Source of the DNA: a virus
Strand: one strand, 5' to 3'
DNA length: 47,997 bases
Virus record (IMG/VR): IMGVR_UViG_3300045988_161434
Coordinates: 1-47,997 of that record
In this document: piece after piece, positions 22,009 through 24,649 of the stretch
Layout of the letters: every line of letters starts with the position of its first letter
How positions within the stretch are numbered: the first letter of the stretch is position 1
Made by a program: the position numbers and the translations under genes
The notes under the pieces: generated by a model
What the model was told of the DNA's origin: nothing
The model's input: the letters and a program-made list of their open reading frames with translations, nothing else
The model's database searches: none

Positions 22009-22452
22009 ATGTATAATCCATATAATAATCAGATGTATATGCAAGATTTGCAGGGATTAAGGGATAGGATAGATAGACAGATGCAACTGGCTAATCAAAA
22101 TCAGCCACAAACTGCTCCTATTACTCAGAATTTCCAACTTGCTCCCAATCAGAACAATGGAATCAAATATGTCAATACTATTGATGATGTGAGAAAAGAA
22201 CTAGTCTTTGCTGATACATTATTTGTAAATAAGGAATACTCTCTTATGTGGCTCAAGAATGCTTCTGGAGATATAAAGTCATACGAACTAAAGGAAATAG
22301 TAGAATTGGACCAAAAAGACCAGAAAATTAAAGAATTAGAAGAAAAAATAAATATGTTGATGAAGGAGAAAGAAAATGAACAATATGCTAACGAAAATGC
22401 TACTGGGTCAGTTACAAACAAGAAACCCACAAATGGCAAGTCAAATCAGTAA
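22009..22452 (+). CDS. hypothetical Q/N-rich protein (moron island)
   Basis: 147 aa; N-terminal Gln/Asn-rich low-complexity region, then a coiled coil; RBS GAAAGGAGAATGATATG. Confidence 0.4.
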   Translation: MYNPYNNQMYMQDLQGLRDRIDRQMQLANQNQPQTAPITQNFQLAPNQNNGIKYVNTIDDVRKELVFADTLFVNKEYSLMWLKNASGDIKSYELKEIVELDQKDQKIKELEEKINMLMKEKENEQYANENATGSVTNKKPTNGKSNQ

Positions 22453-22600
22453 TGCTATGCAAAATGGGGCTAATCCACAGGCTCTAATGAAACAAATGAT
22501 GGGAAATGTGGATAATAATCAAATGCAAAGTGTATTAAGTCAGGCTAGAAATTTAGGTGTTCCAGATAACATTCTACAACAAATACAAAATACTAGATAG
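22376..22600 (+). CDS. hypothetical Q/N/M-rich protein in the +1 frame overlapping the previous ORF
   Basis: 74 aa; its composition mirrors the upstream gene; 77-nt overlap. Confidence 0.3.
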   Translation: MNNMLTKMLLGQLQTRNPQMASQISNAMQNGANPQALMKQMMGNVDNNQMQSVLSQARNLGVPDNILQQIQNTR

Positions 22601-22634
22601 GTATCTATCATCTTCCCTATAATGGGAAAATGAT

Positions 22635-23318
22635 TTGATATATAAAGAAAAAGAAAGGAGAGATATTATGGAAGCAATGCAAACTACAGGAATAATTCCA
22701 ACAATGGACTATTCCAGAAATTATGATGGTTTTGGAGAAAACTCATGGTTTTGGGTAATAATCCTACTATTTGCTTTCTGGGGAAACAATGGCTGGGGTA
22801 ATAGAAACAACGGTTTAGAGACAGATATTGACACTAGATTCTTAGAAAGAGATATCTTTAACACTAACCAAAATGTTTCAACTACAGGCTGTCAAACTCA
22901 GAGAGACATTCTTGAGACTAAATATAATTTAGGCACTCAAGTATTGGAAAACAGATTTAACTGTTCTCAAAATGCTTGTGCTACTCAAAAAGAGATTCTA
23001 CAAAATAGATACGATAATGCACTTCAAACTCAAACATTATCTTCTCAAATGGCACAATGCTGCTGCGATTTGAGAGCAGAGGGCTTAGCAAACACTCAAA
23101 AGGTAATCGACTTAATTCAACAAGATAAGATTGACCAATTAAGAGACCAAGTTTACACTACAAACCTTGCTCTAAATAATGCAAACTTAACAAATCAAAT
23201 AGTTAATTCTATAATTCCAAGACCAGCACCTGCATACCCAAGTTGTAGCCCATTCGTTCCATCAACTTACGGATATGGCTGCAATTCATGTGGATGTGGT
23301 TCTGCCACAATAATCTAA
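22635..23318 (+). CDS. hypothetical membrane protein with a Cys/Gln-rich C-terminal region (spore-coat/exosporium-like composition)
   Basis: 227 aa; TM segment WFWVIILLFAFWGNNGW; cysteine clusters QCCCD and GCNSCGCGS; RBS AAAGAAAGGAGAGATATTATG. Confidence 0.45.
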   Translation: MIYKEKERRDIMEAMQTTGIIPTMDYSRNYDGFGENSWFWVIILLFAFWGNNGWGNRNNGLETDIDTRFLERDIFNTNQNVSTTGCQTQRDILETKYNLGTQVLENRFNCSQNACATQKEILQNRYDNALQTQTLSSQMAQCCCDLRAEGLANTQKVIDLIQQDKIDQLRDQVYTTNLALNNANLTNQIVNSIIPRPAPAYPSCSPFVPSTYGYGCNSCGCGSATII

Positions 23319-23379
23319 GCATAAGCCTATTAAAGGAACTCGTAAGAGAATTGCTAATCCGTGGAATCACACGGAATAA

Positions 23380-23407
23380 AGATAGGCTTAAAAAACCTAT
23401 CTTTTTT
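23380..23407 (+). terminator. rho-independent terminator
   Basis: AGATAGG-CTTAAAAAA-CCTATCT hairpin followed by TTTTTT. Confidence 0.55.
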
Positions 23408-23541
23408 ATAAAACGAAAAATAGAAAAAATTCGTTTTATATATAAAAAATACACAATCATTGTGTAAATACTATGAAAAAAACATAAAAATGTACATTAT
23501 TTTCAAAAAAAATGTGCAAAATTGAAAGGAGAAAAGATAAA

Positions 23542-23976
23542 ATGATAAATTCAGTACAAGAAACTGCTTTAACTTTAGATAGCAACACTTCTAACATCCC
23601 TTTTGCTAGTGATGTTGTTAGAACAAGAAGTGCTAACTGCTGTGGTTTTCTTAACCATAGTGTGGGAGGAACTCAATATCAAATAACAAATGCTGGTATT
23701 TACGAAATTATGTTTAACACAAATGTAACTTCTGCTACTGTTGGTGCTACTGCTCTAGGTATTAAAGCAAATGGCGAATTATTAAGTGGTACAGAAATGG
23801 ATTATACTGTTGCTACTGCCAATGTATATGGTAATGTATCTGCTAATAGACTTTATAGAGTTTGTGGTAATGGTTCAGTAACTATTACAGTTGGCTCTCT
23901 ACCTACTAGTGGTGCTACTGCAACTCAAATCCCTGCTATTAAGAATGCTTCATTAATTATTAAAAAAATTGCCTAG
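23542..23976 (+). CDS. protein resembling the exosporium glycoprotein BclA C-terminal domain (TNF/C1q-like jelly-roll), with no collagen-like region
   Basis: Start MINSVQE with RBS GAAAGGAGAAAAGATAAAATG. The blocks TNAGIYEIMFNTNVTSATVGATALGIKANG and the C-terminal ASLIIKKIA parallel what I recall of BclA C-terminal domain sequence (from memory, not a database search). Confidence 0.5.
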   Translation: MINSVQETALTLDSNTSNIPFASDVVRTRSANCCGFLNHSVGGTQYQITNAGIYEIMFNTNVTSATVGATALGIKANGELLSGTEMDYTVATANVYGNVSANRLYRVCGNGSVTITVGSLPTSGATATQIPAIKNASLIIKKIA

Positions 23977-24222
23977 ATGAATAATGAAACTAAAATGCCA
24001 TGGAATTATGATATTTTAAATATCATTTCCATAGCAAGTTATTTATTGTCTATTCAAAACTTACAATTAAACCAGCAACAGACAAGTAATGATGATATAA
24101 ATAAGCATTTGCAAGACCAAGATAAGATATTGCATGAGCAAAATGAAAGATATTTAACTAAAATAATTCAGCAAAATGAAGAAATACTAACTCTATTGAA
24201 AGGAGGAAAGAATGAAAATTAA
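23977..24222 (+). CDS. hypothetical membrane-anchored coiled-coil protein
   Basis: 81 aa; TM segment ILNIISIASYLLSI. Confidence 0.4.
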   Translation: MNNETKMPWNYDILNIISIASYLLSIQNLQLNQQQTSNDDINKHLQDQDKILHEQNERYLTKIIQQNEEILTLLKGGKNEN

Positions 24223-24649
24223 AGAATACATTGAAAGAATAATTGAAAATGGCAAGTCAGAGGATATGGAAGAACTATCTAATATGCTCGATGAGGCTAT
24301 TATCAAATTGAAAGTCTTAGAGCCAGAATGCTACGACAAATATAAAATGAAGTTAATGGGAATGGCATACAACTATAAATTTGACTATGATACTGCCTGT
24401 GAAATAGTAAATAGTATGAAACCTTTAGGTGAATATTGGGATTATGAGGCTACTAAGAATTTAAAAGATGATTATGATATAGATGATGTGGATTTCTATA
24501 TAGTTATGAACAGTTTGGTTAATGATTATGGAAAAGTAATAGATAAAGAAGATACCAACACCTATGCTAAACTGGCAAGGTCATTTATATTAGATGAAGA
24601 TGCCAAAAAGAACAAGGTATGGATATACTTTACTAAAATAGTTAAATAG
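24212..24649 (+). CDS. hypothetical protein
   Basis: 145 aa; RBS GAAAGGAGGAAAGAATG. Confidence 0.4.
   Translation: MKIKEYIERIIENGKSEDMEELSNMLDEAIIKLKVLEPECYDKYKMKLMGMAYNYKFDYDTACEIVNSMKPLGEYWDYEATKNLKDDYDIDDVDFYIVMNSLVNDYGKVIDKEDTNTYAKLARSFILDEDAKKNKVWIYFTKIVK

Follow-up and report, generated by a model that had tools for sequence, protein, structure and literature searches.

The locus described here raises the question of what a protein resembling the C-terminal domain (CTD) of the spore-surface protein BclA does in a bacteriophage. It lies in IMG/VR virus record IMGVR_UViG_3300045988_161434, of which positions 1 to 47,997, the whole stretch analysed here (the window), form a phage-like genome with a guanine plus cytosine (GC) content of approximately 28%. 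An earlier note on this DNA had taken positions 22009-24649 for a terminator-delimited moron island and had suggested lysogenic conversion of the spore surface of a spore-forming host; every open reading frame (ORF) that it listed is present in the window as described. From comparisons at the sequence level, we conclude that the island is one copy of a cassette that is a conserved, horizontally mobile and self-regulated accessory module of gut Bacillota phages. In the window it consists of the following elements, of which the ORFs fall between a small helix-turn-helix (HTH) gene (21582-21782) and the RusA gene.

22009..22452, plus strand: p147, 147 amino acids (aa), with a Q/N/Y-rich N-terminus, the conserved motif TQNFQLAP, a small beta-rich domain, a coiled coil and a basic S/T/K tail.
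22376..22600, plus strand: p74, 74 aa, Met/Gln/Asn-rich, overlapping the p147 tail in the +1 frame.
22668..23318, plus strand: p227, 216 aa from the ATG at 22668 (227 aa for the longest ORF, from the TTG at 22635), proposed anchor and stalk.
23315..23410, plus strand: structured RNA, with a P0/P1/P2 three-way junction (23315-23360), a variable P3 hairpin (23359-23374) and the terminator hairpin P4 (23378-23404) with its T-run.
23542..23976, plus strand: pBcl, 144 aa, a stand-alone BclA_C/TNF/C1q fold, proposed trimeric knob.
23977..24222, plus strand: p81, 81 aa, Q/N-rich, with an N-terminal hydrophobic helix and a C-terminal coiled coil.
24212..24649, plus strand: DUF7841 protein, 145 aa, optional last cassette gene (PF25223 at E 6.6e-5, just below the cutoff).

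The order p147, p74, p227, RNA element, pBcl and p81, with or without the DUF7841 gene, characterizes about 30 loci (given L numbers below), which were obtained from a scan of GTDB species genomes and further look-ups. The cassette recurs at 23-91% amino acid identity on many unrelated backbones, of siphovirus, podovirus and myovirus types, and at three or four late or early positions. Contigs with a knob 85-98% identical to that of the window include phages whose other genes differ from the window's; these encode a DNA polymerase A or a D5-type primase and giant proteins of 1,521-1,946 aa, and on these otherwise non-matching contigs the five cassette proteins appear in the same order at 64-91% identity. 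Between backbones with almost nothing else in common the cassette proteins are 64-86% identical. In the window, as in its relatives L014 and L017, the cassette directly precedes TerS. In L001, L002 and L036 it comes directly after tail-fibre genes; those of L002 are collagen-like, and a holin gene (Phage_holin_4_1) and an M23/SH3 endolysin gene follow the cassette there. L018 and L034 carry it behind their lysis genes, a Coprococcus comes prophage (L024) has it flanked by Phage_min_cap2 and the scaffold gene, and in the Clostridium perfringens phage PMQ04 it occupies the early/middle region. The variable presence and position expected of a moron are thus found, yet L014 and L017 keep the cassette at the same site as the window. 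A profile search of public data recovered at least 7,941 clusters of p227 at 90% identity, all unnamed, and the cassette ranks among the commoner uncharacterised gene sets of gut Bacillota phages.

Judged by its gene arrangement, the invariant core of the cassette is p227, followed by the structured RNA with its terminator and the BclA_C-like protein. The p227 gene is directly 5' of the pBcl gene in all loci, including those in which BLAST missed p227 and its signature features remain. A variant is present in three C. perfringens phage isolates, PMQ04, HMD-PC1 and XP41-N3, and consists of a p147-like protein, a p74-like protein, p227 (profile hidden Markov model (HMM), E 9e-43), a 119-aa protein and p81 (HMM, E 1e-19). 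The knob slot is taken here by an unrelated, Cys-containing, beta-rich protein of no Pfam family, which suggests a modular head on a conserved base:

17734-18093 of MZ995505 (PMQ04; L028/L037): knob replacement, 119 aa.

No integrase or repressor is annotated in PMQ04, and a search of 50,697 phage records turned up no cassette match in phages of Bacillus or C. difficile. A Logan contig of 46.4 kb (SRR24139202; L030) is 99% identical in nucleotides to the window phage and lacks 21378-22926 (1.55 kb). Lost with it are p66 (the small HTH gene named above), p147, p74 and the first half of p227, so that the upstream protein p84 continues in frame into the C-terminal part of p227 (fusion of 183 aa). 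By this contig, the cassette is partly dispensable.

Morons such as lambda bor and lom and those of HK97-type phages have their own promoter and terminators, a compositional shift and a variable position. The cassette resembles them in its terminators and predicted promoter, its GC shift (0.33 at 22-24 kb vs 0.27-0.29 in the flanks), its variable position and its partial dispensability. Unlike them it comprises five to nine genes, a dedicated regulator and two RNA elements, and it is found in thousands of phages, including virulent-looking ones, rather than sporadically. The moron designation therefore stands as far as the terminators, the predicted sigmaA-type promoter, the higher GC content and the deletion variant are concerned, but not in the sense of a strain-specific island, as the cassette is widespread.

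The likeness of pBcl to BclA, which had been proposed from similar sequence blocks, is borne out by profile and structure comparisons. The start codon of pBcl is backed by a ribosome-binding site (RBS). The protein itself matches Pfam PF18573 at E 7e-5 to 1e-4 (22.7-23.2 bits), below the gathering score of 38, whereas some close relatives have a precomputed match to this family. An exhaustive search retrieved 163 representative relatives, nearly all of them stand-alone proteins of 135-155 aa, and 43 of the 59 aligned family members match PF18573 (best E 1.2e-13). Against the PDB, the family profile retrieved the F-BclA CTD (9h38) at E 2.6e-4 and BclA (2z5w/2r6q/3twi/1wck) at E ~1e-3, in an alignment that spans the blocks quoted before, including YxI..N..TA and the C-terminal IIxKxA. 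The AlphaFold 2 (AF2) monomer model is all-beta with a mean confidence (pLDDT) of 96.5. In Foldseek searches its best PDB match was the BclA CTD 3twi (E 3.4e-8, TM-score 0.69/0.73), followed by F-BclA, EDA/TNF, BxpB, ExsFA and C1q; the A4 cyanophage portal-tail complex (9k09_A) and the A-1(L) short tail fibre (8ke9_A) were matched as well. Among the viral structures of BFVD, the best matches (TM-score 0.8-0.9) were unannotated proteins of 130-142 aa from gut siphoviruses, podoviruses and myoviruses, and next came fibre proteins of the collagen-repeat and Peptidase_S74 kinds, matched at their C-terminal tips. With homology at family level and a modelled ten-strand fold, pBcl is a genuine jelly roll of the BclA_C/TNF/C1q type, and this fold, now settled, points equally to spore naps and phage fibre knobs. 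A homotrimer is proposed. Within the family, a 30-residue N-terminal beta extension and Cys33 are conserved. pBcl is generally the best-conserved member of the cassette (86% identity between the window and L002, vs 64-79% for the other cassette proteins).

The BclA CTD of the Bacillus anthracis exosporium nap (PF18573; 1wck, 2z5w, 3twi) and the F-BclA CTD (9h38; PMC12357932) are homologous jelly rolls that, like pBcl, lack a signal peptide and superpose with a TM-score of ~0.7. In contrast to BclA, the 144-aa sequence of pBcl has neither collagen-like GXX repeats that could form a stalk nor the N-terminal exosporium-targeting motif, and it is encoded by a phage whose host is likely non-sporulating. 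BxpB/ExsFA (8d02, 7r1m, 9h3d) are, like pBcl, stand-alone proteins of ~150 aa with the same fold (TM-score 0.71-0.73), and in Bacillus they dock the N-termini of stalked partners (PMC12357932); however, they have no sequence-level match to the pBcl family profile, and their genomic and biological contexts differ.

The gene upstream of pBcl encodes the second member of the core. The p227 ORF had been placed at 22635-23318; the gene exists and is Cys-rich as stated, but its start is almost certainly the ATG at 22668 rather than the TTG at 22635, because a GGAG RBS is found there and homologs measure 210-219 aa. p227 consists of a hydrophobic W-rich anchor, long helices with TQRDIL repeats, a CCC motif, an RPxPxPAY..SPY motif and a Cys/Gly/Tyr-rich tail. 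Cysteine makes up 10 of its 216 residues including the CCC motif (4.6% vs 0.8% background), a single hydrophobic segment covers residues 26-40, and W27, W29, P188, Y190 and P195 are invariant in the family alignment. The composition of the neighbouring proteins had also been described correctly: p147, p74 and p81 are rich in Gln and Asn (23, 34 and 27%, respectively, vs 10% in the large ORFs of the phage), and p74 contains 12% Met. The proposed likeness of p227 to Cys-rich exosporium or coat proteins did not hold beyond composition, since profile searches of Pfam, NCBIfam and the PDB detected no relation to CdeC, CotY/ExsY or CsxA; the PDB profile searches with p227 and p147 returned noise only. 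In L001, a group I intron (RF00028, E 1.2e-7, short of the gathering score) interrupts the p227 homolog (8740-9541) and carries a 192-aa GIY-YIG homing endonuclease.

The structured RNA, wherever it was detected, stands between p227 and pBcl. Its P4 hairpin is the island-internal terminator recognised before; it is visible in the sequence and was confirmed by folding, and the terminator scan missed it because its loop measures 9 nt. In each of 22 loci a covariance model found a single copy; eight of these loci are outside the set from which the model was built. The start of the element is within -4 to +2 nt of the stop codon of p227 in 18 loci. Of its cells, 84% are paired, vs 71% in shuffled controls (0/500); 10 of the 12 pairs have changes on both sides, and the covariation score is 0.458, vs 0.237 for shuffled and at most 0.128 for slid controls. 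In the window the element folds with a z-score of -4.2. It occurs also in L001-L021, L033, L034 and L036. No covariance model of Rfam 15 matched 21849-22008 or 23315-23541 at E values up to 10.

As in attenuators, alternative pairings precede the terminator: ACUUGC, which forms the 3' strand of P0, is the complement of the GCAAGU loop of the terminator, and in the subgroup of the window UAAGCCUAU is instead complementary to the 5' arm of the terminator. In most loci the RBS of the knob gene follows ~10-20 nt after the T-run, which leaves no room for a promoter, and there the knob must therefore come from read-through. The element is thus a candidate translation-coupled attenuator or riboswitch-like element and, given its position and complementarities, probably a translation-coupled attenuator that ties synthesis of the knob to translation of the stalk. 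The window, L001 and L034 have a lineage-specific insert of 130 nt (23410-23541) between the terminator and the pBcl gene. This spacer contains an 8-bp inverted repeat (AAAACGAA..TTCGTTTT), three TGTRYAWAAT-like repeats and the palindrome listed here, and is possibly an operator or secondary promoter region.

23450..23466, plus strand: perfect palindrome of 17 nt, TACACAATcATTGTGTA, read from the sequence.

At its 5' end, the cassette is preceded by elements that may allow its autonomous expression.

21582..21782, plus strand: p66, a 66-aa stand-alone HTH protein of the LuxR/NarL/sigma70-region-4 type (HTH_38 at E 3e-5).
21820..21848, plus strand: intrinsic terminator of the p66 gene, an 8-bp stem (21820-21840) plus T-run, found by the terminator scan.
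21849..21857, plus strand: predicted sigmaA-type -10 box TTATATAAT, with TATAAT at 21852-21857, directly 3' of the p66 terminator.
21919..21986, plus strand: leader hairpin, in which a Shine-Dalgarno (SD)-like GAAAGGAG strand pairs with a CUUCUUUU strand.

Both terminators that had been claimed for the island, at its 5' side and within it, thus exist. The p66 family profile retrieved the NarL CTD (E 2e-5) and SdiA and RhlR (E 1e-4), and GerE (1fse) only at E 0.013; Sigma70_r4_2 is matched by five of seven family members and GerE/LuxR by three of seven. A specific GerE-like sporulation regulator was ruled out for p66, as the generic LuxR/NarL HTH scores better. A p66 homolog is directly 5' of the cassette in L007, L009, L017, L019 and L025, a 72-aa GerE-family HTH protein takes this position in L036, and we regard p66 as the presumptive regulator attached to the cassette. 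The order of terminator and promoter is also found in L007, L009, L013, L019 and L034, and extended -10 boxes (TGnTAtAAT-like) are present at the same place after the terminator in eight loci. By consensus, the predicted promoter is sigmaA-like and not sigmaE/K-like. Upstream of 23542, matches to the short, AT-rich sigmaE/K consensus would say little in DNA of 28% GC.

The leader hairpin of the window has a minimum free energy of -18.4 kcal/mol and a z-score of -5.2, and 0 of 200 shuffles fold as well. Seven other loci have equivalent hairpins with wholly different stem middles (z -3.9 to -7.3; conservation was judged by per-sequence z-scores only). Across loci the SD-like GAAAGGAG pairs with CUCUUUUC, and the apex is UUAAAAC in six of eight loci. 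The SD-like element serves no initiation in most loci. The hairpin resembles the STAB-SD-type 5' stabilisers of Gram-positive mRNAs, which it recalls by its GAAAGGAG element, or an SD/anti-SD switch. Unlike known attenuators and STAB-SD elements, neither RNA element of the cassette belongs to an Rfam family. A junction abutting a stop codon and a leader hairpin tipped by UUAAAAC are undescribed as far as could be found, and the cassette offers two RNAs that are candidates for new cis-regulators, of which one shows clear covariation. A mini-ORF of 19 codons (21936-21995; MQKNKFNQLRYYYLLLLMT) begins 7 nt 3' of the SD-like element and extends across the leader hairpin; it is probably no general leader peptide, because it is not conserved in most other loci.

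Information on the host comes from the knob and stalk proteins. The exact knob protein of the window occurs in 99 index blocks; those examined were gut samples, with contigs never longer than 50 kb. WP_440337026.1, a protein of Megamonas funiformis, falls in the same 90% cluster as p227 of the window. RefSeq WP_ accessions normally stem from isolate genomes and not from metagenome-assembled genomes (MAGs). An M. funiformis assembly (GCA_051973955.1, JBOLCA010000014.1; L039) contains a 36.7-kb contig with 96.6-98.9% identity to the window over 14 kb. On this evidence, Megamonas is the most likely host of the window phage. It belongs to the Negativicutes/Selenomonadaceae and is described as gram-negative and non-spore-forming (PMC12442376). 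The inference of a spore-forming host therefore fails for the window phage, because a 96.6-98.9% identical phage is found in an assembly of a non-sporulating lineage. Overall, the hosts of cassette phages comprise a spore-former (C. perfringens) and non-sporulating lineages. The length of the contigs, together with the XerC/D-like recombinase of the window amid recombination genes, suggests an episomal or carrier state of the window phage rather than integration. MAG labels were judged unreliable for host assignment: a 40,887-bp phage contig (L009, L010) is binned in both a 'Clostridia bacterium' and a 'Methanobrevibacter sp.' MAG, so that phage-sized cassette contigs are evidently mis-binned. 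Other cassette contigs are binned in Gastranaerophilales and Bacteroidales.

What, then, might the cassette do? Our preferred, still tentative interpretation is a split assembly of the BclA/C1q/TNF kind, in which p227 would serve as anchor and stalk and pBcl as knob; it would be put together in the cytoplasm, at the membrane, and would act on the host. TNF ligands, C1q and the tail-needle knob of phage Sf6 place a trimeric jelly-roll head on a trimeric anchored stalk. The pair would reproduce this plan, split over two genes with a regulatory RNA between them: p227 would supply a hydrophobic anchor as well as a long, oligomeric stalk of coiled coils with a Pro/Tyr/Cys-rich tail at its end, and pBcl would form a trimeric knob on this stalk, as in the anchor-stalk-head arrangement of BclA, C1q and TNF ligands. 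No cassette protein has a signal peptide, and assembly would therefore be cytoplasmic, on the inner side of the infected cell's membrane. p81, with its hydrophobic helix and coiled coil, and the Q/N/Met-rich p147 and p74 could be accessory or chaperone-like partners. Expression would be autonomous through the LuxR-type HTH gene, the terminator, the sigmaA-type extended -10 promoter and the leader hairpin, and the three-way junction with its terminator would link translation of the stalk gene with read-through into the knob gene. Possible roles are exclusion of competing phages at the envelope or masking of receptors on debris. The cassette most likely acts on the host, and is not a fixed part of the virion, because it moves between backbones and morphotypes, shifts its position and can be partly deleted; its separate host-type promoter and regulator likewise favour a host-directed accessory role. 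Should a BclA-type domain indeed work in phages of a non-sporulating host, the fold would be separated from its spore-surface connotation, and caution would be called for in annotating BclA_C-like phage genes with sporulation or exosporium functions.

Several observations weigh against this interpretation. Only their invariant adjacency associates p227 with pBcl, and the model of coupled attenuation rests only on position and complementarity. The hydrophobic segment of p227 comprises ~13-15 residues with a Kyte-Doolittle (KD) value of 1.57 and no flanking positive charges, which makes its insertion and topology uncertain. The AF2 monomer model of p227 is poor and unreliable (pLDDT 40; helices at 26-39, 73-96 and 104-182). 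The deletion variant L030 is a single assembled contig and might be defective. PADLOC gave nothing, and NCBIfam nothing meaningful, when the cassette proteins were searched for known defence or exclusion systems. The cassette is embedded in structural operons in several phages, and the fold of the knob is common in fibre tips; both facts fit a role in the virion equally well.

It is these last two points that keep alive the strongest alternative, a virion accessory in which p227 would be a trimeric coiled-coil fibre and pBcl its distal knob, forming a side fibre, whisker or head fibre for adsorption. We consider this doubtful, though not lightly dismissed. The TNF/C1q-like fold is widespread at phage fibre tips (9k09, 8ke9 and the C-termini of collagen-repeat and S74 proteins in BFVD), the cassette follows tail-fibre genes in L001, L002 and L036 and is inserted in the head module of L024, the absence of signal peptides suits cytoplasmic virion assembly, and virulent-looking phages carry the cassette. 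The earlier note had named placement in a phage fibre family as evidence against its reading; the fold is indeed shared with fibre tips, but the constant position in a tail module that would accompany such a function was not found. Rather, the position is syntenic with no structural module, being in the head region, at the tail and lysis genes, before TerS or, in PMQ04, in the early/middle region, and the spread over siphovirus, podovirus and myovirus genomes is hard to reconcile with a part that docks on a specific virion site. That the cassette has a promoter of host type, a regulator and an attenuator of its own, and that a partial deletion variant exists, also speaks against a virion part. 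Moreover, the knob is generally the most conserved member, unlike variable receptor-binding tips, and fibres do not typically have a hydrophobic W-rich segment or Q/N/Met-rich partners.

A more far-reaching version of the host-directed interpretation, which we consider improbable, is that phages carry an exosporium-type set, made up of a knob of the BclA/BxpB fold, a self-associating Cys-rich base and Q/N-rich partners, as a mobile riboregulated cassette that operates outside sporulation, even in a non-sporulating diderm. It would build a new kind of intracellular or envelope-attached array of stalks and knobs, which would shield the infected cell or the progeny by superinfection exclusion or receptor masking, and the junction RNA would represent a new class of translation-coupled or ligand-responsive attenuators. 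If so, exosporium nap proteins could have passed out of, or into, a phage reservoir.

Still less probable, in our view, is a lysis module in which p99, p84 (both encoded upstream of p66), p227 and p81, together with the knob, would modulate holin/endolysin action or envelope disruption, with p227 resembling an i-spanin. The cassette adjoins holin/endolysin genes in L002, L018 and L034, and p227 has the layout of an N-terminal anchor, coiled coils and Cys residues. Megamonas, as a member of the Negativicutes, has an outer membrane, and spanins are relevant in diderms. However, the endolysin gene of the window (43129-44025) is 19 kb away, the cassette is also carried by phages of monoderm hosts that need no spanin (C. 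perfringens, Coprococcus), no lipobox lipoprotein partner was found, and no cassette gene matched a holin or spanin family.

Least credible is remodelling of the host spore surface or exosporium by a lysogenic-conversion moron with BclA/BxpB-like and Cys-rich proteins: although the closest solved structures are exosporium BclA, F-BclA, BxpB and ExsFA, the absence of signal peptides and the coat-like Cys-, Q/N- and Gly/Tyr-rich composition recall structures made in the mother-cell cytoplasm, some cassette-phage hosts sporulate (C. perfringens) and the window carries a tyrosine recombinase, it is contradicted by the near-identical phage in gram-negative, non-spore-forming M. funiformis, by the variant in PMQ04 with no annotated integrase or repressor, by the lack of matches in the Bacillus and C. 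difficile phages searched, by a predicted promoter that is sigmaA-like, by the generic LuxR/NarL type of p66, by the absence of homology between p227 and CdeC/CotY/ExsY, and by a survey of sporulation genes in gut phages that names no coat or exosporium genes. Lysogenic conversion is not the general logic of the cassette, because the cassette is widespread on unrelated backbones and occurs in phages with no annotated integrase or repressor. For the window phage, the spore-surface reading is largely refuted if Megamonas is confirmed as the host. Cultured systems are at hand in the C. perfringens phages PMQ04 and HMD-PC1 (gene products UIS73972-UIS73976), the phage-carrying M. funiformis strain and the C. 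comes prophage.

The remaining cassette proteins have few recognisable relatives. Homologs of p147 are found at 24-65% identity in 12 loci of the family alignment, and searches of Pfam, PHROG, NCBIfam, PADLOC and the PDB gave no match. The first 77 nt of p74 (22376-22452) coincide with the 3' end of p147, and overlap and frame are kept in at least six diverged loci. A programmed frameshift between the two was ruled out, since p74 has its own AAGGAG RBS and its frame opens only 0-7 codons before the start codon; from these signals, p74 is an independently initiated gene. p81 adjoins pBcl in all arrangements noted, following it in general and preceding it in L022-L026, and matches only PHROG families of unknown function. 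The DUF7841 gene is found 3' of p81 in L001, L015, L017, L034 and L036 and is absent in L002/L004. Two further small genes precede p66.

20850..21149, plus strand: p99, a small protein with an N-terminal hydrophobic segment (maximum KD 1.83, residues 5-19).
21203..21457, plus strand: p84, a predicted small single-pass membrane protein (KD 3.30 at residues 31-45).

Homologs of p99 (30-67% identity) are encoded a few genes upstream of the cassette in L002, L004, L007, L008, L012, L018 and L036, and p99 matches no family. Homologs of p84 adjoin the cassette in L009, L013, L017 and L019. Altogether, four of the nine clustered genes (p99, p84, p227 and p81) encode hydrophobic segments.

The flanks of the island had been named correctly as RusA and the TerS junction, and the following features of the window could be recognised beside a tape-measure-sized gene, DnaB and RecT.

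24761-24790, no strand assigned: bidirectional terminator AAAAAAAAGACTCAGTTAACTAGTCTTTTTTT, read from the sequence, closing the cassette side and RusA.
24774-25142, minus strand: RusA, identity confirmed.
25224/25937, downstream flank of the island: TerS/TerL, identity confirmed.
27800-29344: ORF of 514 aa in the portal position; its homolog in related contigs has SPP1_portal.
43129-44025: endolysin, Peptidase_M15_3.
3134-4039: tyrosine recombinase, XerC/D-like, 301 aa.

Nucleotide and protein searches of the same 50,697 phage records gave no match for the island DNA, p147, p81 or the DUF7841 protein, and remote matches only for TerL and the endolysin, so that the backbone has no cultured relative there. 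Between the cassette and RusA, the stretch 24651-24790 contains a perfect consensus sigma70 promoter (TTGACA-17-TATAAT, 12/12 positions), which precedes a hairpin-rich stretch of ~100 nt ending at the bidirectional terminator shared with RusA. It is possibly a small RNA that is partly antisense to the 3' end of RusA; Rfam gave only sub-threshold noise for it. A block of small minus-strand ORFs at ~13400-18900, of which none of the three tested gave a reliable family match, coincides with a sharp inversion of the GC skew (to -0.62). The giant proteins of L002 (13286-19126, 1,946 aa) and L001 (12458-17023, 1,521 aa) have no Pfam match; their genes are located at the end of the plus-strand late block and adjoin the minus-strand DNA polymerase A or D5-type primase genes. 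In the window, a tRNA-Leu gene with the anticodon UAA (29354-29428) is located just 3' of the 514-aa portal-position gene and 5' of the next head-region gene.

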